This document shows positions 2,735 to 16,855 of a DNA stretch of 64,000 bases, piece by piece (the stretch's first letter is position 1; every line of letters begins with the position of its first letter). The DNA lies in contig CBDCNQ010000005.1 of NCBI GenBank assembly GCA_965219445.1, positions 512,001-576,000 of the forward strand, read 5' to 3'. The notes under the pieces are model-generated. The model had not been told where the DNA came from, searched no databases, and saw only the letters and a list, made by a program, of their open reading frames with translations. This stretch comes from Longimicrobiales bacterium. Lineage in GTDB: Bacteria > Gemmatimonadota > Gemmatimonadetes > Longimicrobiales > Gaopeijiaceae. The position numbers were made by a program, and so were the translations under genes.

Positions 2735-5527
2735 CTAGACATCCGGTGCACCTTGATCGGGCCTAACCCTTTTTCCCCTCACCTTCTCGATCACAAGCGC
2801 TTTCGCAGATTCGTCGAGTGCGGCCAGTCTCCGCTCGATGTCTTGCTCCAACCTCGTCTGCTTGGCGGTTACGGTGCTCGTCCTATAAGGGATGCTGATG
2901 ATATGCTGCCCCAATGACGCCACATCCGGGTGTTCGAACACTGCCACGAGGGAGACCTCCACACCAAGCTGGCTTCGGATACGCGTCTGGACCCGCGTGG
3001 CCAGAAGCGAATGGCCACCGAGTTCGAAGAAGTTGTCATGGATCCCGATTTCCTCGACCCCGAGAACCTCGCTCCAGATCTCGGCGATCACCTTTTCGAC
3101 CCGCGTCCGAGGCTCCACGTACTCGGCGAGTCCATCTCTTTGGTTCGTCGGCTCCGGTAGGCTGGCCCGGTCGATCTTGCCACTCGGGTTCAGTGGCAAC
3201 TCGTCCAGTGCCACCAAATAGTTCGGCACCATGAACTCAGGAAGTCGATCGCGCAGATACCGACGCACTTCGCCCGTCCCATCCGCCCTTCCCTCCAACA
3301 CCACATACCCAACCAGTTTTCGGTCCCCCTCCTCGTCCTCCTGCACTACCACCACCGCGTCACGCACCCGCTCGTGACCCATCAGCACCGACTCGACCTC
3401 GCCCGGCTCGATCCGAAATCCTCGCACCTTCACCTGATCGTCGAACCGCCCCAGGAATTCCAACTGCCCGTCTGAGCGCCACCGCACACGATCCCCCGTC
3501 ACGTACAAACGCTCCCCCCTCTCGCCAAACGGGTTCGGCACGAACCGCTCCGCTGTCAGGCCTGCTCGACCCCAGTACCCCCGAGCTAAACCCGCACCTC
3601 CGATGTACAACTCGCCCGCCACACCCACCGCCACCAACTGCATCCCCCCGTCCAGCACGTACAACCTCGTATTCGCAATCGGCTTACCAATCGGTGGGAG
3701 GGAGTGACCACCAAAATCCTCAATCCGCATCCGCCACTGGGTTACAACGTGCGTTTCGGTGGGCCCGTAGTGATTCACGATGTGGGAGCAGAAGGCATGG
3801 AGGAGCTGGCGGTGGAGGTCAGCGGAAAGAGTCAGCCGTTCTCCGGCGAACACGATTGTCTCCAAAGCCAACCCGTGACGGCCCTGCTCTCTCACGAGAT
3901 CACATAGATGCCTAAACTTCGATGGGGTCGTGAATATCCACGACCTTAGTTTCTCAGAGCTCTTGCCGAGAACCTCTGCCACCCGGGCCAACTCTGCATC
4001 CTCGCTTGCGTTCAGGCATCCCCCGGCCAGCAGAGGGGTGATAACCTCCTGAACCGATACATCAAAGCTCACCGTAGACGTCTGCCATACGTGAATTGGC
4101 GCCTCGGAGGCAAGCACCGATACCTGCCACTGCAAGAGATTGGCTAATCCGACGTGCCGGTACGAAACGCCTTTCGGGGTACCCGTGGAGCCGGAGGTGT
4201 AGATGATATAGGCCAGGTTCTCGGGATCGACCGGCACCTGCAGATTCATCGTATCCGCGGTATCGAAGATCGGCTCCTCTCGATCGAGGTACACGACTTC
4301 CACGGCCAGTGACGGTACCCGGTCCACCAGACGCCGCTGCGTCAGTAATACCTCGACCTCACTGTCCTCCGCCATGAATGCCAGCCGCTTCGGCGGATAG
4401 TCAGGATCTAGTGGCACATACGCTCCGCCCGCCTTCAATACCCCCAACATCCCCACTACCAACTCCATCCCACGCTCTACACACAGCCCTACCCGTACTT
4501 CCGGACCCACACCCAGCCGCCTCAGTTGATGCGCAACCTGATTCGCCCGCTCGTTCAGCTCTCTGTACGTATACCGCTCCCCCTCACACTCCACTGCAAT
4601 CCCTTCCGGCGTTCGCTCCACCTGCCCTTCGAACAGCTCGTGAACACTCGCCTCCGGATACGATACCCCCGTCTCGTTCCACTCCTCCAACAGCTGCCGA
4701 CGCTCGTCTTCACCCAGCATCGCCATCTCATAAATCGGACACTCCACATCCTCCACCACACTCTCCAACAACCGCCCGTAATGTCCCATCATCCGCTCGA
4801 TCGTCGCGCTATCGAACAGGTCCGTGCTGTATCTACAGCTGCCCACAACCGACCCGTCCTCCTTCTCCACAAGCATCGCAACCAGATCGAACTTGGCAGT
4901 GTGACTGTCTGTCGAAACCGACGTCGCCTCCAGTTCACCCAGCTTGAGCGCTCGCTTCTCCGGACTGCGGAGCGTGAACATCACCTGGAAGACCGGATGA
5001 TGTGCCAGACTCCGTTCGACGTTGAGCTCCTCGACCAGCTTCTCGAACGGCAGATCCTGATGCTCGTACGCGTCTAGCGTCGTCTCACGAACCCGTCGCA
5101 GCACCTCCCGGAAGCTTGGCTCCCCCGATAGATCCGTCCGTAGCGCTAGCGTGTTCAGGAAGAACCCGATCAGTCCTTCGAATTCCTCTCGGCTACGGTT
5201 CGCGATCACAGTCCCGACGACGACATCTTCCTGTCCCGAATACCGAGCCATCAGAACCTTGAACGCCGCCAGCAACACCATGAACAGCGTCGCACCTTCT
5301 TCCCGACCCAAAGCCCGCAAACCCTCCACCACCTCCGCTGGGATATCGAACCGCTCGCGCCCCCCTCGGTGACTCTGAACCGCCGACCGGGCTCGATCCG
5401 TCGGCAACTCCAACAACTCCGGAGCCCCCGATAACTTCCCCTTCCAGTAATCCACTTGTTTGCCTAACTCACGCTGCCGGTTCTGGCCCTCCATGTCGGC
5501 ATCCTCCGCCAAGATCTGCCGATTCAT
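2735..5527 (-). CDS. NRPS gene 2: half C domain (C-terminal lobe only)-A-PCP; A domain predicted to activate Pro or a Pro analogue
   Basis: 930 aa. Begins at YWKGKLSGAPELLELPTD with no HHxxxDG. FDVSVQE, NHYGPTETHVV give pocket code DVQFVAHVV(K), Pro-type. PCP DNFFELGGHSLL. Confidence 0.92.
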   Translation of the reverse strand: MNRQILAEDADMEGQNRQRELGKQVDYWKGKLSGAPELLELPTDRARSAVQSHRGGRERFDIPAEVVEGLRALGREEGATLFMVLLAAFKVLMARYSGQEDVVVGTVIANRSREEFEGLIGFFLNTLALRTDLSGEPSFREVLRRVRETTLDAYEHQDLPFEKLVEELNVERSLAHHPVFQVMFTLRSPEKRALKLGELEATSVSTDSHTAKFDLVAMLVEKEDGSVVGSCRYSTDLFDSATIERMMGHYGRLLESVVEDVECPIYEMAMLGEDERRQLLEEWNETGVSYPEASVHELFEGQVERTPEGIAVECEGERYTYRELNERANQVAHQLRRLGVGPEVRVGLCVERGMELVVGMLGVLKAGGAYVPLDPDYPPKRLAFMAEDSEVEVLLTQRRLVDRVPSLAVEVVYLDREEPIFDTADTMNLQVPVDPENLAYIIYTSGSTGTPKGVSYRHVGLANLLQWQVSVLASEAPIHVWQTSTVSFDVSVQEVITPLLAGGCLNASEDAELARVAEVLGKSSEKLRSWIFTTPSKFRHLCDLVREQGRHGLALETIVFAGERLTLSADLHRQLLHAFCSHIVNHYGPTETHVVTQWRMRIEDFGGHSLPPIGKPIANTRLYVLDGGMQLVAVGVAGELYIGGAGLARGYWGRAGLTAERFVPNPFGERGERLYVTGDRVRWRSDGQLEFLGRFDDQVKVRGFRIEPGEVESVLMGHERVRDAVVVVQEDEEGDRKLVGYVVLEGRADGTGEVRRYLRDRLPEFMVPNYLVALDELPLNPSGKIDRASLPEPTNQRDGLAEYVEPRTRVEKVIAEIWSEVLGVEEIGIHDNFFELGGHSLLATRVQTRIRSQLGVEVSLVAVFEHPDVASLGQHIISIPYRTSTVTAKQTRLEQDIERRLAALDESAKALVIEKVRGKRVRPDQGAPDV

Positions 5528-8500
5528 TGTGACTGTTCCCGACTCCCCAATCGCTTGAGAAGTTCCTCAGCAAACGTTGGATCAAGAGAATGCATCTGAC
5601 TTGCAATCTCATCAATCATTCCTGCCTGATCACGCGTGGCAGGCGACGGCACCGATGACACATCTCGCAGAGGGCGACTCATTGCGTGCATCTCATAAAT
5701 CGGACGCTCCACATCCTCCTCCACACTCTCCAACAACCGCCCGTAGTGTCCCATCATCCGCTCGATCGTCGCGCTATCGAACAGGTCCGTGCTGTATCTA
5801 CAGCTGCCCACAACCGACCCGTCCTCCTTCTCCACAAGCATCGCAACCAGATCGAACTTGGCAGTGTGACTGTCTGTCGAAACCGACGTCGCCTCCAGTT
5901 CACCCAGCTTGAGCGCTCGCTTCTCCGGACTGCGGAGCGTGAACATCACCTGGAAGACCGGATGATGTGCCAGACTCCGTTCGACGTTGAGCTCCTCGAC
6001 CAGCTTCTCGAACGGCAGATTCTGATGCTCGTACGCGTCTAGCGTCGTCTCACGAACCCGTCGCAGCACCTCCCGGAAGCTTGGCTCCCCCGATAGATCC
6101 GTCCGTAGCGCTAGCGTGTTCAGGAAGAACCCGATCAGTCCTTCGAATTCCTCTCGGCTACGGTTCGCGATCACAGTCCCGACGACGACATCTTCCTGTC
6201 CCGAATACCGAGCCATCAGAACCTTGAACGCCGCCAGCAACACCATGAACAGCGTCGCACCTTCTTCCCGACCCAAAGCCCGCAAACCCTCCACCACCTC
6301 CGCTGGGATATCGAACCGCTCGCGCCCCCCTCGGTGACTCTGAACCGCCGGCCGGGCTCGATCCGTCGGCAACTCCAACAACTCCGGAGCCCCCGATAAC
6401 TTCCCCTTCCAGTACGTCAGCTGCCTCGCTAGCTCCCCACCCTCCAACCACTCTCGCTGCCACATGGCGTAGTCCGCATACTGCACCGGTAGCTCAGGCA
6501 ATGGTGACGTCGCCGAACCACCCCCGTACGCCTCGTACAGCACACTCAACTCCCGGAACAGTACATCCATGCTCCATCCATCACTCACAATGTGATGCAT
6601 CGACAGAAGCAGGACATGCTCCGAATCGGACAACCTCAATAGCTCCGCCCGGAACAGTGGCCCTCGCTCCAGATCGAAGCCCCGCCCCGCCATCTCCTCC
6701 GCCCGCCGCCGAATCTCCTCCTCCAACTCCGCCCCACCCAGACCCGTCAGATCCTCCCGCGGTAACTCCCACCCCCCAGCCTCTCCCACCACCTGCCAAG
6801 GCTCCCCGTCAATCTCCACAAACGTCGTTCGCAACGACTCATGCCGACCGATCACCTCCCCAATCGCCCACTCTAACCCCCCAACATCCAACACCCCAGA
6901 CAGACGAATTCCCTTCGACACGGTGTAAAACGCATCGCCAGGATACATACGATCCAAAAACCACAGCCGCTCCTGTGCGCGCGAAAGCCACAAACGCTCC
7001 TCGCCCGGGGCTCGCCTCACCCCGCCCTCCTCGACGACCAGCCCACACTCGGCATCCTGCGCAAGAGACGCCACCTCAGGGCTCTCGAACATCCTCCGGA
7101 GCGGGACCTCCACACCAAGCTGGCTTCGGATACGCGTCTGGACCCGCGTGGCCAGAAGCGAATGGCCACCGAGTTCGAAGAAGTTGTCATGGATCCCGAT
7201 TTCCTCGACCCCGAGAACCTCGCTCCAGATCTCGGCGATCACCTTTTCGACCCGCGTCCGAGGCTCCACGTACTCGGCGAGTCCATCTCTTTGGTTCGTC
7301 GGCTCCGGTAGGCTGGCCCGGTCGATCTTGCCACTCGGGTTCAGTGGCAACTCGTCCAGTGCCACCAAATAGTTCGGCACCATGAACTCAGGAAGTCGAT
7401 CGCGCAGATACCGACGCACTTCGCCCGTCCCATCCGCCCTTCCCTCCAACACCACATACCCAACCAGTTTTCGGTCCCCCTCCTCGTCCTCCTGCACTAC
7501 CACCACCGCGTCACGCACCCGCTCGTGACCCATCAGCACCGACTCGACCTCGCCCGGCTCGATCCGAAATCCTCGCACCTTCACCTGATCGTCGAACCGC
7601 CCCAGGAATTCCAACTGCCCATCTGAGCGCCACCGCACACGATCCCCCGTCACGTACAAACGCTCCCCCCTCTCGCCAAACGGGTTCGGCACGAACCGCT
7701 CCGCTGTCAGGCCTGCTCGACCCCAGTACCCCCGAGCTAAACCCGCACCTCCGATGTACAACTCGCCCGCCACACCCACCGCCACCAACTGCATCCCCCC
7801 GTCCAGCACGTACAACCTCGTATTCGCAATCGGCTTACCAATCGGTGGCTCTTTAGAGCCACGCTCGCAGCGAGCTGACGTTACATTGACAGATGCCTCG
7901 GTTGGACCGTAGAGATTGAACATTCGACGACCCGTCCCCCATCTCCGAACCAATTCCTCGGGGCAACGTTCTCCGCCAACCAGCAGCGTCGTCAGATCTT
8001 CGAATTCGACCTCCGGTAGGTGGCTGCACACGGTAGGTGGCAACTTGGCGTTCGTGATGCAGTGCTTGCGCAAGAAGTCGACAAGCCCCCGTCCGGGCAG
8101 CAGGGCCTCTCCCACCGCAATATGCAAGGTAGCCCCCGAGTGGATCGCCATCGAAATCTCTGCAATCGCCGCGTCGAAGCCAAACGACGCAAATTGGAGG
8201 ACCGCCGTCCTCGGTCCCGTGTCGAACCTGTCTATCCGATCCAAACTCACATTGGATATGCCCCTGTGCGGGATCAGAACACCTTTCGGGGTACCCGTGG
8301 AGCCGGAGGTGTAGATGATATAGGCCAGGTTCTCGGGATCGACCGGCACCTGCAGATTCATCGTATCCGCGGTATCGAAGATCGGCTCCTCTCGATCGAG
8401 GTACACGACTTCCACGGCCAGTGACGGTACCCGGTCCACCAGACGCCGCTGCGTCAGTAATACCTCGACCTCACTGTCCTCCGCCATGAATGCCAGCCGC

Positions 8501-9624
8501 TTCGGCGGATAGTCAGGATCTAGTGGCACATACGCTCCGCCCGCCTTCAATACCCCCAACATCCCCACTACCAACTCCATCCCACGCTCTACACACAGCC
8601 CTACCCGTACTTCCGGACCCACACCCAGCCGCCTCAGTTGATGCGCAACCTGATTCGCCCGCTCGTTCAGCTCTCTGTACGTATACCGCTCCCCCTCACA
8701 CTCCACTGCAATCCCTTCCGGCGTTCGCTCCACCTGCCCTTCGAACAGCTCGTGAACACTCGCCTCCGGATACGATACCCCCGTCTCGTTCCACTCCTCC
8801 AACAGCTGCCGACGCTCGTCTTCACCCAGCATCGCCATCTCATAAATCGGACACTCCACATCCTCCACCACACTCTCCAACAACCGCCCGTAATGTCCCA
8901 TCATCCGCTCGATCGTCGCGCTATCGAACAGGTCCGTGCTGTATCCACAGCTGCCCACAACCGACCCGTCCTCCTTCTCCACAAGCATCGCAACCAGATC
9001 GAACTTGGCAGTGTGACTGTCTGTCGAAACCGACGTCGCCTCCAGTTCACCCAGCTTGAGCGCTCGCTTCTCCGGACTGCGGAGCGTGAACATCACCTGG
9101 AAGACCGGATGATGTGCCAGACTCCGTTCGACGTTGAGCTCCTCGACCAGCTTCTCGAACGGCAGATCCTGATGCTCGTACGCGTCTAGCGTCGTCTCAC
9201 GAACCCGTCGCAGCACCTCCCGGAAGCTTGGCTCCCCCGATAGATCCGTCCGTAGCGCTAGCGTGTTCAGGAAGAACCCGATCAGTCCTTCGAATTCCTC
9301 TCGGCTACGGTTCGCGATCACAGTCCCGACGACGACATCTTCCTGTCCCGAATACCGAGCCATCAGAACCTTGAACGCCGCCAGCAACACCATGAACAGC
9401 GTCGCACCTTCTTCCCGACCCAAAGCCCGCAAACCCTCCACCACCTCCGCTGGGATATCGAACCGCTCGCGCCCCCCTCGGTGACTCTGAACCGCCGACC
9501 GGGCTCGATCCGTCGGCAACTCCAACAACTCCGGAGCCCCCGATAACTTCCCCTTCCAGTACGTCAGCTGCCTCATCACTCGTTGCATGTCAGAAGGTCG
9601 CGATTTCGGCCTGGCGGAGCGCAT
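5524..9624 (-). CDS. NRPS gene 1: half C domain-A-PCP-C
   Basis: 1366 aa. N-terminal half C domain, A domain (FDAAIAEI, NLYGPTEASVNV), PCP GGHSLL, full terminal C domain with MHHIVSDGWS. 4-nt ATGA overlap with gene 2. Confidence 0.92.
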   Translation of the reverse strand: MRSARPKSRPSDMQRVMRQLTYWKGKLSGAPELLELPTDRARSAVQSHRGGRERFDIPAEVVEGLRALGREEGATLFMVLLAAFKVLMARYSGQEDVVVGTVIANRSREEFEGLIGFFLNTLALRTDLSGEPSFREVLRRVRETTLDAYEHQDLPFEKLVEELNVERSLAHHPVFQVMFTLRSPEKRALKLGELEATSVSTDSHTAKFDLVAMLVEKEDGSVVGSCGYSTDLFDSATIERMMGHYGRLLESVVEDVECPIYEMAMLGEDERRQLLEEWNETGVSYPEASVHELFEGQVERTPEGIAVECEGERYTYRELNERANQVAHQLRRLGVGPEVRVGLCVERGMELVVGMLGVLKAGGAYVPLDPDYPPKRLAFMAEDSEVEVLLTQRRLVDRVPSLAVEVVYLDREEPIFDTADTMNLQVPVDPENLAYIIYTSGSTGTPKGVLIPHRGISNVSLDRIDRFDTGPRTAVLQFASFGFDAAIAEISMAIHSGATLHIAVGEALLPGRGLVDFLRKHCITNAKLPPTVCSHLPEVEFEDLTTLLVGGERCPEELVRRWGTGRRMFNLYGPTEASVNVTSARCERGSKEPPIGKPIANTRLYVLDGGMQLVAVGVAGELYIGGAGLARGYWGRAGLTAERFVPNPFGERGERLYVTGDRVRWRSDGQLEFLGRFDDQVKVRGFRIEPGEVESVLMGHERVRDAVVVVQEDEEGDRKLVGYVVLEGRADGTGEVRRYLRDRLPEFMVPNYLVALDELPLNPSGKIDRASLPEPTNQRDGLAEYVEPRTRVEKVIAEIWSEVLGVEEIGIHDNFFELGGHSLLATRVQTRIRSQLGVEVPLRRMFESPEVASLAQDAECGLVVEEGGVRRAPGEERLWLSRAQERLWFLDRMYPGDAFYTVSKGIRLSGVLDVGGLEWAIGEVIGRHESLRTTFVEIDGEPWQVVGEAGGWELPREDLTGLGGAELEEEIRRRAEEMAGRGFDLERGPLFRAELLRLSDSEHVLLLSMHHIVSDGWSMDVLFRELSVLYEAYGGGSATSPLPELPVQYADYAMWQREWLEGGELARQLTYWKGKLSGAPELLELPTDRARPAVQSHRGGRERFDIPAEVVEGLRALGREEGATLFMVLLAAFKVLMARYSGQEDVVVGTVIANRSREEFEGLIGFFLNTLALRTDLSGEPSFREVLRRVRETTLDAYEHQNLPFEKLVEELNVERSLAHHPVFQVMFTLRSPEKRALKLGELEATSVSTDSHTAKFDLVAMLVEKEDGSVVGSCRYSTDLFDSATIERMMGHYGRLLESVEEDVERPIYEMHAMSRPLRDVSSVPSPATRDQAGMIDEIASQMHSLDPTFAEELLKRLGSREQSQ

Positions 9625-10076: not shown

Positions 10077-10292
10077 TCACGCACCCTCCGGAGTTGATTC
10101 CTCCATCTTCCGTCGCAGCGAAAGTGGGCGCATATCGGTCCACACTTCGCTGATATAAGCCAGGCACTCCTCCTTGCTCCCCCGCTTCCCTGCATCCCGC
10201 CACCCAGGAGCGTTTTCACGCTCCGCGAACCAGATGGAGTACTGCTCCTCTTGGTTGATCACAACTCGATAGACCCTGCCCTCTTCACTCAT
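10077..10292 (-). CDS. mbtH: MbtH-like protein
   Basis: NQEEQYSIW...PGWR...[17 protein letters not shown] is the MbtH signature; start taken at ATG 10292. Confidence 0.95.
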
Positions 10293-10533
10293 ACGATCTC
10301 CTCGACGATCAGGTTCCAAAGACCCTGGCTAGCCCGTTCAATGATCTGGGCCGCACCGACGGCCCATCAACCGACGCGTCCTGCCTCCTTGAAACCACGA
10401 AGATTTAGACTCCAGACTGCCGGCTCGAAACTTGGCGACACACACGGCCGCGTCTCTATGAACAGACGCTGCCAAGGTACTGATCTGCCCCCCAAAGCGG
10501 TACCCCCGTCCAATGCCAGACCAGCAGCCGCCC

Positions 10534-10886
10534 TTACAGTTGAGGCAACCTGAGAAACCAAGATGATGGCTTGATCGTCTCCAGAGCGAGTGGGAGACGA
10601 TCGCAGCCAGGGTGTGGCCGGGTGGTATTTCGCAGCCGCAGCCCCTGCTCAACCAGCACCTCAGCCTCGGCCAGTGAATAGCAGATCTCCCCGTTCAAGA
10701 ACTTGTTTCTCAACCTTCGCTTGAAGCTCTCGACGTAGCCACTTAGCCGAGGACTCCCCGGCTCGATGTATAACGTCTGGACACCTGGCCCGGCAAAAAA
10801 CACCACCGGACCAGTTTGGCGGTGAACTCAGGCCCATTGTCGGAGCGCAGATTGTCGGGCGGACCATGCCGCGCGAACCAATTGGC
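10534..10886 (-). pseudogene. IS3-family transposase (integrase core) remnant
   Basis: LRSDNGPEFTA and LYIEPGSP..GYVESF..RLR in shifted frames. Confidence 0.8.
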
Positions 10887-12257
10887 TGTCAACGCCGATT
10901 GAAAATGTCACACTTCGACGGCGGGTGACGAGCCTCTCGATCGTCGTTTTTTCCTTTGCTCTTGCCCTCGTTTTGCGGGGGGGGGGGCTCCGCAGGAGGC
11001 GAGTGGAGCCCTTTGGAGAGCTCGGTGCGATAATGCATCCGGTAGCTGTTACCGCGGAGGTTGACGATGTGGCAGTGGTGCGGAGCCGGTCGAGGAGTGC
11101 TGCGGCCATGACCTCGTCGCCCAGAACCTCGCCTCACTCCTCGAAGCCCTTGTTGGACATGAGCACGGTGGATGTGTACTCGTAGCGCCGGTTGATCAAG
11201 TGGAAGAAGAGCATGGCGCCGGTCTGACTGACCGGTAGGTAGCCAATTTCGTCCACGACCAGGAGCGCGGGATAAGTCAGGGCCTTGAGGCGGTGACCGA
11301 GCCGGCCCGCGGCCTTGGCTTCTTCGAGAGAGGTGATGAGGTCGGCCGGAGCGCCGTTGTAGACACTGCTTCCGCTCCGGGCTGTAGCAGTGGCCAGGCT
11401 GATCGCCTGATGCGTCTTGCCGACGCCCGGAGGGCCGAGGAAGATCACGTTCTCCTTGCGTGCCAGGAACCCGAGCGCGGCATGGACGGGCGTTGGGCCT
11501 GCATGCGCGGATCCGGAAGCCATGATGGCTCGCGAAGCGTAGGAACTCGGCGTTCTCGATACGGCGACCTCCCATGGCTCGCTCATCCTTGATGACTACG
11601 ACGTTCATCTGGTCGAACAGTAGCTCGTGGGGCACACCGCCAAAGAACGAGAACGCCTCTTCAAGACCCTCGAAGACATGCATCGTCTTCCTGAAGAAAA
11701 ACTGTAGCCACACAGGACGCGGGAGAAGCCCAGCACGGCCAGGAACGCATAACGCTTGCCCTAGTGCAGCCGAAAGTCCGCGAAGTCGACCTGACCCTGG
11801 TGGCCCAGCGGCGTCTCAAAGCGGACTACCGGATCCTCAGGCGCCGGGGGCGGACCTTGCGCACTTACTCCTTAAGTTATGTGTATCCACCCCGATGCCT
11901 GCCGCTCGGGTCTCTTCGAGAGCCAGATCGCTGTGAGTCGCGGGTAGGTCTCCAAGGGTACTTCGATGATGCCTGTGTCGGGATCCAGCTTGGTGGACTT
12001 CGGCGATCGAGGCCCCTAGGGGACCGGTTCGTCGTCCGGTCCCGATCCGATCCCCCGGCCTCGATCTCAGCGATAGATCGTGCGTCGATCGAGCTAGGAT
12101 CAAAGGCATCATAGGGGCATGGCGACCGCTACCGGTACCGATCAGCAGCGAAGCAGCCCGAAGACGAAGAGGCGTTCTCCTCCGGGAGCGGGTGCGCGTT
12201 CATCATTATTCGCGCAAGCAAGCAACCCAACCCGTCCTACCCAAGAGGAGGATGCCC

Positions 12258-13313
12258 ATGGAGAGGTATATCGGACTCGACGCACACGCGTCGAGCTGCA
12301 CGCTGGGGATTGTAGGCCCCAGCGGCAAGCGCTTGGGCTCGCAGGTGGTGGAGACGAACGCGCGGGCGCTGATCGAGGTGCTGCGAGGGATTCCGAGGAA
12401 CCGGCACTTATGCCTGGAAGAAGGGACGCTGTCGGGGTGGCTGTACGAGGTGCTGAAGCCGCACGTGGAGGAGCTGACGGTGGCGGGGGTCGGCAAGAGC
12501 CGGGGCCCGAAGACCGACAAGCTGGACGCGTTTGCCCTGGCGGAGAAGCTGCGGATCGGATCACTGGAGACGACGGTCTACAAGAACCGGGGCCAGTTCA
12601 GGCGGCTGGGGGAACGGGCGAAGAGCTACGACTTCTTGGTCGGCGACACGGTGCGGGTGAAGAACCGGCTCAAGAGCGTGCTGCGCTCGAGAGGAGTGGC
12701 CTACGGCGCGGGGCGCTCGGTCTACTTAAAGCGCGACCGGGAGGAGTGGTTGGCCAAGCTGCCGGAAGCGAGCAGGACGACGGCCGGGTTGCTGTACGAG
12801 GAGCACGACGCACTCGTGGCATTGAGGGCGAAGGCCGAGAAGGCGTTGCTGGCGGAAGCACGCAAGCATCGAGAGTGGCATGTGCTGAAGACGTGCCCGG
12901 GTCTGGGTCCGATCCGGACGGCGGAGCTCCTGCCGGTGGTGGTGACGCCGTACCGGTTCCAGAGCCGGAGCAGGTTCTGGGCGTACTGCGGACTGGGCGT
13001 CGTGATGCGGAGCTCGTCGGACTGGGTGCGGGGTCCGGGTGGGCGGTGGGTAAGGGAACCGGTACAGCAGACGCGGGGGCTGAATCGGAACTTCAACCAC
13101 ACGCTGAAGCGTGTGTTCAAGGGCGCAGCGACGACGGTGATCGGTCGGGCCGAGGACGAGCCCTTGTACCGCCACTACGAGCGACTCCTGGAGGGGGGCA
13201 CGAAGCCGAATCTGGCGAAGCTGACGATCGCGCGTCAGCTCGCCTCGATCGTGCTAGCGGTGTGGCGCACGGGCGAAGCGTACGACCCCAAGAGACTGGA
13301 AGCGACGGAGTAA
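12258..13313 (+). CDS. IS110-family DEDD recombinase/transposase
   Basis: YIGLDAH, CLEEG and KTDKLDA (DEDD RuvC-like domain); C-terminal PGLGP..AYCGL..RSSS; GAGGAGG RBS before ATG 12258; frame intact. Confidence 0.95.
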   Translation: MERYIGLDAHASSCTLGIVGPSGKRLGSQVVETNARALIEVLRGIPRNRHLCLEEGTLSGWLYEVLKPHVEELTVAGVGKSRGPKTDKLDAFALAEKLRIGSLETTVYKNRGQFRRLGERAKSYDFLVGDTVRVKNRLKSVLRSRGVAYGAGRSVYLKRDREEWLAKLPEASRTTAGLLYEEHDALVALRAKAEKALLAEARKHREWHVLKTCPGLGPIRTAELLPVVVTPYRFQSRSRFWAYCGLGVVMRSSSDWVRGPGGRWVREPVQQTRGLNRNFNHTLKRVFKGAATTVIGRAEDEPLYRHYERLLEGGTKPNLAKLTIARQLASIVLAVWRTGEAYDPKRLEATE

Positions 13314-13698
13314 ACCGGCCTGGGATCGGCGAGCGTGGGGTCGAAAGCGGTCACAACATGGGGTCCGACGAAACGGAAGCGAACCGGTTACAGGGGACAG
13401 CATCCATACACACCGTGGGCCGGGGCAGAGAGCCCAAGCCCCCACTCAAAGGCTATGCACCCCTGGAGAGCCGAACGAAGCGATGGGCCACAGAGTCCCA
13501 GATAGAAGGATGGTTCCCGCTCCAGAGCGGAGAACGCGACGGCTGTGAACGTCTTCCGGACTGCGATGCGGACCCTGCGAGCGCACCCCTCCCCACCCTG
13601 AGTCGTCGACCGGGCAATCCAAACCATGCGGACGCCGACGGTCAAAAAATGAGCCGACGGCGCGTGGGGAAGGTGCGTCTTGACCGCCAGCCCCATAG
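13314..13698 (+). ncRNA. Putative bridge/seek RNA region of the IS110 element (guide loops at about 13391-13517)
   Basis: An internal loop carries TACACACC (reverse complement of the target right flank) and TCAAAGG (target left flank plus core). A second loop carries ATAGAAGG (donor left flank plus core). Exact RNA ends are unknown. Confidence 0.8.
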
Positions 13699-13789
13699 AA
13701 GGGTGTGTAAAAAGAGAGGCGACGTACCTTTGCGCTGAGATTTAAACCAGCGAGCCCGGGTGACAGCCCGGGGAAAGGAACGTCGCCTC

Positions 13790-15035
13790 ATGAGAGAGGA
13801 TATCGCGGGACCCCAGGGTGCGTCCAGCAGGCTGATGTGGGAGACGCTCGAGGGGATGGTTAGGGAGAAGGCGCAGGAGTTCATCCAACAGATCATGGAG
13901 GAGGAAGTCACGGAGTTGTTAGGCCGGGAGAGGTCAGAGCGCAGGAGTACGGTGGACTCGGCCGAGGGCTACCGCAACGGATATGGCAAGCCGAGGCGGT
14001 TGGCGATGAGCTCGGGCACGATCACACTCCGACGCCCTCGGGTTCGGGGCGTCGAGGAGCGGTTCGAGAGTCGGGTGCTGCCGTTGTTCGCGAGGCGGAC
14101 GAAGGAGCTGGGCGCTCTGCTTCCGGAGCTGTATCTGCACGGACTGGCAGAGGGAGACTTCGAGCTGGCGATGCGGGGACTGCTAGGCGAGGGGGCACCG
14201 CTGTCGAAGTCTTCGATTCGGAGACTGCGGGCGGGATGGACGGCGGAGTTCGAGGAATGGAGCCAGCGTCGCCTGGAGGGCCGTGAGGTCGTCTACGTAT
14301 GGGCGGACGGGATCTACGTGAAGGCAGGGCTCGAGCGGGACAAGGCGGCGCTGCTGGTGGTGCTGGGCGCGATGCGAGACGGGACGAAGGAGGTGTTGGC
14401 CCTGAGATCGGGCTACCGAGAGTCGGTCGAGTCCTGCTCCGAGGTGTTGCGGGATCTGAAGGCACGCGGCATCGAGGCGCCCCGGCTTCTGATGGCGGAC
14501 GGTAACGCGGCGATCTGGGGCGCAGTACGGGCAGGTATGGCCTGAGGCGGGCGAGCAACGGTGCTGGAACCACAAGATGAGGAACGTGCTGGACCGGCTG
14601 CCGCAGCGGGAGCAGAGCGAGGCGAAGGATCTTCTCAGGGCCGTGGTCTACGCACCGAGCCGGGCCGAGGCTGTGAAGGCCCGCGAAGTGTTCGCCAGGC
14701 GCTACAGGCCGTGGTATCCGAAGGCGGTGGACGTACTCGAGGACGACTGGGAGCGGATGGTGGCGTTCTACGACTTCCCCGAGGATCACTGGAAGCATCT
14801 ACGCACGACGAACGTGGTCGAGAGCCCGTTCGCTGCGCTACGGCTCAGGACGACGGCGGCGAAGCGATTCAAGCGGGTCGAGAGCGCTACGGCGCTGATC
14901 TGGAAGTTGCTCTTGGTGGCCGAGAAGCGGTTCCGAAGGCTCGACGCTCCTCACCTCCTCAAGGACGTGTTTGAAGGAAGGAAGTTCGAAGACGGAAAGC
15001 CCGTCTCAACCCAACAGCGGAAGAATGCCGCCTGA
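13790..15035 (+). pseudogene. IS256-family transposase, frameshifted near 14530
   Basis: GYRNGY, YVWADGIY, LMADG, then QRCWNHKMRN and LRTTNVVES in the next frame. Confidence 0.88.
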
Positions 15036-15324
15036 TACGTTTACACACCTATTGACCCAACCTCCGTCGATCAACGCCCAGGTCACTCGCCAGGGCTGCC
15101 TTCGACATGCCTTGTTCGAGATAGTGTCTGAGCAACACATGCTCCTCTGTTCCGTACATCGCGCCTCCGACGTGTGGGTAGAGTCGCAAAGATGGAGGAT
15201 CGACGCGTGGGCGCTCAGTTAGTAGAGCTTACGCTCGGCGCCTCGCAGCCCGACCTACAGGACCGCGGAGTGTGACATTTTCGTCCGCCACTTCTGTGTA
15301 AGCGCTTAGTCCGCCGCTAACGAT

Positions 15325-15480
15325 TAGCGAGTGCAAACTCCTCGAGCAGAAAAGCTCGCGGAACCAGCTCGAGGCGCGGATGGCCGTGTTGGACTTCATC
15401 GAGGCCTAGTATGATCCCCACCGATGACACTCCGCTCTCGGGCATGGGTCACCCCTTGATTACGACAAGGAAGCACACAC
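15325..15480 (+). pseudogene. IS3-family transposase C-terminal remnant
   Basis: EARMAVLDFIEA*YDPHR*HSALG resembles the IS3 OrfB C-terminus, with stop codons. Confidence 0.65.
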
Positions 15481-15514
15481 CGCACCTATCGATAACCCCA
15501 GCATCGAGGTAGCC

Positions 15515-16855
15515 TTGAAGCACTTACGGGTCCGCCCGCTCAAAGGACCAATCGGTGGAAGCATCGAAGTGCCCAGATCCAAACCGGAAACCCAGCGCGC
15601 CATCCTGGCCGCCTCTCTTGCGGAGGGCTCGTCGATCATCCATGGCGATCTAAGGTGTGAGGAGACTCTGGCCATGCGGACGGCGGTGTCGGCGCTTGGG
15701 GCTCATGTGAAGGTAGATCACGGTGCCCTGTGGGTAACAGGAACATCACGGCCGGCCGCGCCGGCATCAGTGATACATTGCGGTGGTTCTGCGCTGGTGT
15801 TTCGTACAATGCTTGCGCTTGCATCATATAGTGGGGCGCCGACCATTCTGAGTGGAGACCACACGCTCCGATTGCGGCCGATGGCACCACTTTTCAGTTC
15901 GCTAGGTGAACTAGGGGCGGTGGTGGAGGAAATCTCGGAAGCCGGATGCGCCCCGGCAGTCAATTGGGGCAGGGGGCTGCGCGGCGGACACGCGTATCTG
16001 CCACCCGACGTAAGCTCACAGTTCCTCACGGCGCTTTTGTTTGCCGCGCCGCTTGCCGAGCGTAGGCTCATTCTCTCCGTAGGACAGCCTTTGCGTTCAC
16101 GATCGTACGTTGATCAAACGATCGTTGCTCTAGCACGTGCTGGTATCACGGTCGAAGTGTCCTCCTCCAATAGTATCTACTGTGTCGAGCCGGGACCGTA
16201 CAGGCCTTTTGAGGTAGGAATCGGCGGCGATTTCACATCCGCGTCATACCTGATGCTGCTTGCATCCCTTTTCCCTGGCAGTTCTTTGACCTTGAGGGGG
16301 CTCGAGGAGGATAGCCTCCAGGGGGAGCGACTCATGCTGGACGCTTTGGAGGCAGTCGGCGCAAAAGTGGGTTTCAACCGAAAGGACGAATGCCAGATTG
16401 AGGTCTCCAATGAACTCCAAGGAGACCTGGAACTAGACCTGTCTAATGGGCCGAATGTGTTCCCGACACTCGCGGTATTGGGTGCCTTCATACCTGGCAC
16501 AACGGTGCTTGTCGGAGCGCGACTAACGAACGATCACAAGTGTCCGAGGATCACCGCGGTGGCGGAGGAGCTGAGGCGCTTCGGGGTCAAATTGTCGCTG
16601 ATCTACGATGGAAACAGCTTGGACGGGTTGCGGATTCAGGGTCGTCGAGACTACAAGGGAGACGCCATACTTGATAGCCACGGTGACCACAGATTGCTAA
16701 TGGCCTTGGCGGTTGCGTGTACTCGAATGTCGAGAGCTACGTCGGTGACGGGATCCACTCTGGTCGCTCAGTCCTACCCGAACTTCTATAGGCATCTCAC
16801 AAGACTGGGAGTGCAACTCGCCGATGAACCGTTGCTGACTCCACCGGCAAGCTAG
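15515..16855 (+). CDS. EPSP-synthase/enolpyruvyl-transferase-fold protein, divergent from AroA
   Basis: 446 aa; PRSKPETQRA, LRLRPM, VSSQF, GDFTSASY, HGDHR, SYPNF. Several AroA catalytic positions are altered. Confidence 0.85.
   Translation: MKHLRVRPLKGPIGGSIEVPRSKPETQRAILAASLAEGSSIIHGDLRCEETLAMRTAVSALGAHVKVDHGALWVTGTSRPAAPASVIHCGGSALVFRTMLALASYSGAPTILSGDHTLRLRPMAPLFSSLGELGAVVEEISEAGCAPAVNWGRGLRGGHAYLPPDVSSQFLTALLFAAPLAERRLILSVGQPLRSRSYVDQTIVALARAGITVEVSSSNSIYCVEPGPYRPFEVGIGGDFTSASYLMLLASLFPGSSLTLRGLEEDSLQGERLMLDALEAVGAKVGFNRKDECQIEVSNELQGDLELDLSNGPNVFPTLAVLGAFIPGTTVLVGARLTNDHKCPRITAVAEELRRFGVKLSLIYDGNSLDGLRIQGRRDYKGDAILDSHGDHRLLMALAVACTRMSRATSVTGSTLVAQSYPNFYRHLTRLGVQLADEPLLTPPAS

Follow-up and report, generated by a model that had tools for sequence, protein, structure and literature searches.

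The window, the whole 64,000-nucleotide stretch of DNA analysed here, contains an IS110-family element with an IS1111-type layout that is inserted at an AG dinucleotide in the left inverted repeat (IR) of an IS256 element and was very probably placed there by RNA guidance. The element, 1,596 bp long, splits the left IR and leaves the 8-bp target site duplication (TSD) around its host intact. Excision of 12107-13702 restores a 25-nt left IR with an ungapped match of 20/25 to the right IR (15040-15064), and the two copies of the TSD, CGTCGATC, are identical, as the original prediction had claimed. Its overall reading, an RNA-guided IS110 element that parasitises IS256 ends, is supported by the location of 23/24 genome copies in left IRs and by guides that covary with their targets. 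The features of the locus are as follows.

12083..12090, + strand: left IS256 TSD, identical to 15065-15072
12091..12105, + strand: outer IS256 left IR, with the left target up to 12103 and the core AG at 12104-12105 (from the junctions and the intact empty form in genome G063)
12106..13699, + strand: IS110-family element between the AG cores, 1,596 bp including one core (24 left ends and as many right ends in the genome; ends kept in relatives)
12107..12112, + strand: predicted -10 box CATCAT of a circle-junction promoter, which would lie 17 nt from TTGACC once the ends join
12111..12124, + strand: left subterminal IR, imperfect, 7 nt from the end with the core counted; aligns with the right repeat at 12 matching positions and two 1-nt gaps
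12258..13313, + strand: IS110-family recombinase of 351 aa with D8, E55, D87, D90 and S253 (PF01548, PF02371; invariant residues; fold match to IS621 and ISCro4)
13385..13545, + strand, approximate extent: predicted bridge/seek RNA containing two internal loops (45-sequence consensus fold; compensatory change in 15/28 pairs)
13407..13414, + strand: top-strand guide, matching the right flank as its exact reverse complement (covariation)
13444..13451, + strand: left target guide with the core; matches the IS256 site over 6 contiguous nt and the off-target site C2:336726 over 8
13475..13481, + strand: candidate right donor guide in the second loop; 5/7 matches to the left end of the element, in conserved columns
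13502..13508, + strand: left donor guide plus core, tracking the donor end in relatives
13680..13685, + strand: predicted -35 box TTGACC of the circle-junction promoter; TTGAC also served as anchor for right ends
13685..13696, + strand: right subterminal IR, 3 nt from the end (comparison with the left repeat)
13700..13711, + strand: second core AG (13700-13701) and inner IS256 left IR, the right target (junction comparison)
13790..15035 (13790-14545 and 14577-15035), + strand: IS256-family transposase, frameshifted near 14530 (PF00872, NF033543)
15040..15064, - strand: IS256 right IR, untargeted (0/29 right IRs occupied in the genome)
15065..15072, + strand: right IS256 TSD, identical to the left copy

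The original prediction had assumed a core of four nucleotides, AAGG. Only the dinucleotide AG is common to both junctions, and in relatives, whose right ends were located by the TTGAC anchor, the base before AG at the left junction is T, C or G and the base after AG at the right junction is A, T or C (L007, L108, L110, L057). These variable neighbours rule out AAGG and leave a 2-nt core; the length of the element is the same after this correction. In two relatives (L119, L129) AA takes the place of AG at both junctions. The empty site is real, since 41 intact copies of it are present in genome G063 and loose ends were found in public sequencing runs, where the outer IR is joined to 13699 and intact empty left IRs are present. 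In one relative (L002, G061 C7:95743) three additional bases lie between the core and the right target at the right junction.

Copies of the element were counted in the 4.56-Mb assembly G000, with one diverged lone left end excluded. The genome contains 24 left and 24 right ends, and 23 of the 24 left junctions consist of the outer IS256 left IR, interrupted at the same base and in the same orientation, as expected if other copies sit in IS256 IRs. Among the right ends, 21 run on into IS256 and one more does so after a 1.9-kb intron; the remaining ones belong to an internal duplication and an off-target copy, and one copy of the element is without a right end. The target loops are identical in all complete copies (23/23). 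No intact empty 14-mer target was found in the 4.56 Mb of G000, and the five empty left IRs are all altered within the 14-mer, each in a different way. At the off-target copy (C2:336726), 8 nt match the left guide, two above the IS256 site, and 6 nt match the right guide with a shift of one base in register. When the flanks of this copy are rejoined, an open frame of 348 codons is restored, which rules out a homopolymer error at this site. The outer IR has four more matches in G000 that were left uncounted, as three seem to be due to chance and one looks like a truncated end.

Several other rearranged or mobile sequences were noted in the same genome. A group II intron-like element of 1.9 kb, with a reverse transcriptase ORF containing YADD, is present in 13 near-identical copies, one of which (C4:1169767-1171666) lies 3 nt past an IS110 right core within the same IS256 IR, and most of the others sit after stem-loops and GTG. 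Class C introns insert after stem-loops and GTG. At G000 C5:1612734 and at G062 C11:428759-429835 (L005, L218) the right end of the element is joined, through its AG core, to an AG in its own recombinase gene; this fusion duplicates the RNA-bearing 3' part, and in G062 it is accompanied by three tandem RNA copies with a spacing of 458 bp. A solitary diverged left end at C2:661602 of G000 adjoins the older target flank and is not followed by a recombinase.

The recombinase has the two domains of the IS110 family, a DEDD RuvC-like N-terminal domain (DEDD_Tnp_IS110, PF01548) and a C-terminal Tnp domain with the catalytic serine (Transposase_20, PF02371), both scoring above the Pfam cut-off. NCBIfam NF033542 (IS110) gives 112 bits, below the curated cut-off of 140, which reflects divergence and not another family, because a 42%-identical relative reaches 151 bits. 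D8, E55, D87, D90 and S253 are invariant across 24 aligned relatives, and S253 aligns with the serine loop of IS621. The predicted structure (pLDDT 86.8) has its best matches in IS621 and ISCro4 (Foldseek E 3e-13, TM 0.66-0.75). The open frame of the window copy and the five invariant residues agree with the earlier claim of an intact programmable recombinase as far as integrity is concerned. Further family traits are the fixed site and orientation, the short core and the lack of a TSD of its own (23/24 at one base). The closest relatives of the element are 95-99% identical among the matches listed, and no plasmid relative above 28% identity was present among the 15 best of 51 records.

The noncoding region downstream of the recombinase measures 386 nt, against 152 nt upstream, and contains the putative guide RNA. 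Here the original prediction had recognised an exact reverse complement of the right flank at 13407-13414, the left flank plus core at 13446-13452 and the left side of the donor at 13502-13509, all of which were found again, and the minimum free energy fold places both target strands in one internal loop, as it had also proposed. Both target motifs, in order and within 70 nt, occurred in none of 20,000 shuffles of the 3' end. Single-sequence folding was no better than shuffles (z -1.18 and -0.79), and a search of 11500-15500 against Rfam gave no match at E<=1. A consensus fold was derived from 45 of 50 candidates with less than 90% identity, five with long inserts being excluded. It has two internal loops and changes on both sides in 15 of 28 pairs; 93.9% of its cells are paired, a value reached by none of 500 shuffles and contrasting with 34-52% in slid controls, with a bias in favour of the fold, as the alignment used to infer it also served to score it. 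The left donor guide tracks the donor end (ATAGA, ATGGA or ATAGG), with one mismatch case outside the core in 60 loci. For the candidate right donor guide (5/7), guide and DNA partner are both near-invariant in relatives.

To compare guides with targets, loci of relatives were collected (at least 157, of which at least 77 came from genomes and at least 80 from metagenomes). The alignment of 3' ends comprised 111 sequences including the window; L056, L060, L134 and L138 were dropped for want of a recognisable target loop, leaving 107. Flanks were scored for 69 left and 60 right ends, representing 34 distinct left and 30 distinct right guides, with the first locus taken for each guide. Left guides matched their own flank at 4.47 of 6 positions on average (34 guides; permuted 2.35, maximum 3.12) and right guides at 6.67 of 8 (30 guides; permuted 4.13, maximum 5.07), the latter as the best of three registers, a rule applied equally to the null. 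None of 20,000 permutations, in which relatedness is retained, reached the observed scores, so that the expected covariation of guides with targets was borne out in relatives for both guides. The second core base equals the guide base in 34/34 cases, the AA-core elements included. The best register of the right guide, counting ties, was +1 in 15, 0 in 12 and -1 in 3 cases, and the right guide appears to pair either in register or one base out of it. In four close pairs (L093/L098, L084/L011, L088/L085 and L110/L111) guide and flank changed together; L092 (2/6), L124 (1/6) and L029 (4/8) are misfits. The predicted structured RNA and its target loop for both strands, which covaries with the target, correspond at the sequence level to the bridge/seek RNAs.

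The commonest target of the clade, seen in the right flanks of 40 relatives (e.g. L116, L090, L115, L129), lies at unrelated loci, and we take it to resemble an ECF-sigma promoter in many cases. A strict ECF-like motif downstream was found in 5/40, against a background of 0.9%; the motif was picked after inspection, and the ECF-promoter idea is therefore a lead.

The IS256 guide occurs in two places of a tree built from 37 recombinases. One is the clade of the window (9 rows, support 100/100), and the other is L092/L093, which lie within a group of elements that have another target (100/99); none of 200 bootstrap trees recovered a single origin of the guide. The recombinases of the window and L093 are 69% identical, with the same IS256 guide and the same IS256 site. 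L093 and its sister L098 differ at 9% of ORF bases, at 13/15 guide bases and at 8/16 inner-stem bases, compared with 3/15 guide bases and 0/16 inner-stem bases between L094 and L098. L092 has the IS256 guide and is located in the older target. Possible explanations for the shared IS256 guide in two lineages are an exchange of the whole loop or convergence.

The host IS256 encodes its transposase in two ORFs, the longest frame being 268 aa as against 423 aa in most genome copies, and one other genome copy is also frameshifted; the original prediction does not mention this frameshift. Occupied IS256s of the genome belong to at least three variants, about 100, 89 and 80% identical to that of the window. 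The commonest variant is near-identical between copies, and the resident IS110s are polymorphic (29 columns over 22 copies). The IS110 haplotypes have a mosaic appearance, and copies have exchanged many of their TSDs, which shows recombination, and the order of events is therefore blurred. In G000, 11/28 left ends of IS256 match the right flank of another copy, across contigs or strands, pointing to rearrangement between the 3-kb units or to misassembly. The split IR would likely immobilise IS256.

Five further genomes (G061-G065) were searched by pattern for occupied and empty ends; G007 repeats the coordinates of G061 and was counted once. G064 has five occupied left IRs, and 10/10 of the listed empty ends, from one IS256 lineage, are without the AG core (8 AT, 2 TA); the bodies of occupied and empty IS256s interleave at 0-16 differences. 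An off-target copy in this genome (L234) resembles the guide. In G062 two left IRs are occupied and both empty ones (2/2) are mutated, and in G061 four are occupied and the empty ends comprise intact as well as mutated ones. The guide is the same in G063, where 41 intact empty ends stand against one full copy, which has 8 amino-acid differences from that of the window. In G065 no left IR is occupied and 5/6 empty ends are intact; its sole copy (L009) has other guides, with the IS256 right IR at its left junction and a right junction that is not IS256. Saturation with only mutants left is thus seen in three genomes and absent in two with the same guide.

According to the proposed mechanism, a two-loop RNA would arise from the 3' end of the element; its first loop would pair with the two strands of the IS256 end, its second with the joined ends of the element itself. 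The element would circularise in the manner of IS621, ISEc11 and CazIS110-1, and the joined ends would build a predicted promoter (TTGACC-17 nt-CATCAT). The junction promoter would then express recombinase and RNA, the RNA would by analogy bind the recombinase, and recombination would take place at the core, again as in these three elements. No sigma-70 promoter was predicted in the linear form. A circle junction was found in none of eight sequencing runs, which does not imply its absence, as seven consist of contigs, which drop rare forms, and the raw run provided 9 reads. In a small share of one RNA run the RNA region was uncovered, and coverage was limited to 12341-12626 and 13733-13900. 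Spread would proceed in two steps, IS256 multiplying first and the element then filling the copies one by one. For CazIS110-1, the available part of the source describes a copy-out route that keeps the donor copy (10.1101/2025.10.25.684509), and a route of this kind would suit the high copy number. Site specificity, guide-target covariation, the conserved fold, the 2-nt core and the intact catalytic residues are demonstrated by sequence comparison.

It is extremely improbable that sites are chosen by protein-DNA recognition and that the loop matches are incidental. The RNA of the element is a prediction, which leaves room for this view, yet the sister elements L093 and L098, whose ORFs are 9% apart, have different loops and different targets that match their own loops, and the 69%-identical recombinases of the window and L093 share both the loops and the IS256 site. 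A further question is how the high copy number arose. The IS256 transposase could have moved IS110 and IS256 as one composite, IS110 itself having been inserted only a few times. A matching TSD surrounds the whole unit in seven occupied G000 copies, including that of the window, and in two more with 9-bp duplications (9/23), the left IR retains its outer 15 bp and the 423-aa frame is open in most IS256 copies, all of which would be compatible with such joint movement. The TSD is equally expected if IS256 moved first, however, different IS110 haplotypes reside in identical IS256 bodies, the occupied copies include three IS256 variants, and occupied and empty bodies interleave in G064. Since near-identical IS256 bodies contain differing IS110s, separate insertions are favoured, and composite transposition is considered quite unlikely.

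The mutated empty ends could be escape alleles, selected because they cannot be parasitised, in an arms race between two insertion sequences. This agrees with changes within the 14-mer in 5/5 empty ends of G000, with the loss of AG in 10/10 listed empty ends of G064 beside five occupied ones in one IS256 lineage, and with the 2/2 mutated ends of G062. Plain saturation gives the same pattern, however; no two of the five G000 alleles are alike, one of them lacks an A in a run and may reflect an assembly error, and one is also found in G065, where no left IR is occupied. Moreover, G063 with 41 and G061 with several intact empty ends are unsaturated, and the genomes are few and related. Fisher tests of allele against occupancy were set aside, since they assume that occupied sites were once intact and the copies are not independent. 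As three genomes are saturated and two with the same guide are not, selection for escape is treated as a lead, and we regard it as somewhat doubtful. Alternatively, the mutated ends might be scars, formed where imprecise excision left donor bases next to the core. Two G000 alleles (C4:1221671 and C4:199278) can be read as chimeras of left target and left donor, and in IS621 two mismatched bases beside the core are reported, in the accessible parts of the sources, to need repair in the products (PMC13626964, PMC11208158). Reciprocal conversion, however, was seen in 0 of 24 left and 24 right G000 junctions, the evidence comes down to one transition and one insertion, and the G064 alleles do not fit; this origin is improbable. 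Tentatively, and with the odds rather against it, one could extend the preferred RNA-guided reading to a hyperparasite in an arms race with IS256, which fills every matching left IR while core-mutant IS256s escape and multiply (the eight AT-core ends of G064), and which re-aims by swapping the whole target loop as a cassette between lineages (the guide shared by the 69%-identical recombinases, the replaced guide and inner-stem bases between L093 and L098), including the L009 variant with the IS256 right IR at its left junction.

Elements that insert into the ends of other mobile elements have precedents. IS4321 and IS5075 of the IS1111 group reportedly insert into the IRs of Tn21-family transposons, as Partridge and Hall (2003, referred to in PMC11208160 and PMC11187229) are said to have described. 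Like the present element they occupy the terminal IR of another mobile element and have subterminal repeats; they differ in the target, which here is the IS256 left IR, and here the guide was read out and tested by covariation. According to the accessible text on ISEc11, ISKpn4 and ISPa11, these share with our element a long 3' noncoding region, terminal extensions of 7+3, a junction promoter (predicted here) and natural reprogramming among relatives (ISEc11/ISXne4), as well as the order typical of the IS1111 group, with the top-strand match 5' of the bottom-strand match (PMC11187229), here 13407-13414 before 13444-13451. In contrast to these elements, the RNA is predicted here, the subterminal repeats are imperfect and GLGxxxRSSS replaces GLxPxxxxS(T)G (PMC11187229) as the C-terminal motif. 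IS1111 elements have perfect or near-perfect subterminal IRs of 11-13 bp at 7/3 bp from the ends; the 7+3 spacing is present here, and the repeat has 12 matches with two 1-nt gaps. The clade has GLGxxxRSSS/A where IS1111 has GL-P----S(T)G. The original assignment to the IS1111 type thus holds for the architecture and fails for this motif, and the element is filed as IS1111-like and not as a member, because its subterminal repeats are gapped and its C-terminal motif deviates.

ISEc21 of the IS110 group is similar in carrying a guide against another insertion sequence, an IS3-family transposase gene; its noncoding region lies upstream, its guide order is reversed and its target is coding, as far as the available text describes it (PMC11187229). 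With IS621 and ISCro4 the element shares the fold, the DEDD residues plus catalytic serine, the 2-nt core and the two internal loops (available parts of PMC11208160, PMC11208158, PMC13626964; PDB 8WT6-9, 9T56). These two are about 19-20% identical to the window recombinase and, in the same parts of the sources, have the core CT in place of AG/AA, the RNA in the left end and REP targets. The bridge/seek mechanism and the targeting of the ends of other elements are already published, and our element is likely a new example of this known RNA-guided insertion mechanism in a divergent clade. IS256 ends as a target of IS110 elements appeared in no title or abstract start of the literature searched; ISfinder, TnPedia, subscription papers and bioRxiv supplements lay outside this scope and may list one. 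The term IS256 is absent from the available portions of PMC13604230 and 10.1101/2025.05.14.653916 and from the searched parts of the PMC11208160 supplements.

The element offers an unusually complete natural case of the bridge/seek-RNA kind, as one genome provides 24 copies together with their target, unoccupied sites, off-targets and alleles that are non-permissive. Some 30 guides that differ naturally, each with its flanks, allow direct predictions of specificity for a divergent clade, among them the predicted rules of an AG/AA core and of a right guide that pairs one base in or out of register. The same material bears on how guides are rewritten in nature and on whether the targeting of one insertion sequence by another restrains the host element and selects escape alleles.

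In the window, the stretch directly left of IS256 (10534-11936) contains decayed fragments that are IS21-like (IstB, rve) and IS3-like (rve_3). This cluster of mobile elements is flanked on the left by an NRPS gene (5524-9624), beside which the ORF 10077-10319 presumably encodes an MbtH-like protein; the gene at 15515-16855, on the other side of the cluster, is assumed to encode an EPSP-synthase-like protein. In another genome (G005, C1, e.g. 448761-489098 and 2209163-2222451), a 40%-identical IS110 relative is present in 15 copies, many of them a few kb apart and on one strand, as if matching an array of repeated sites.
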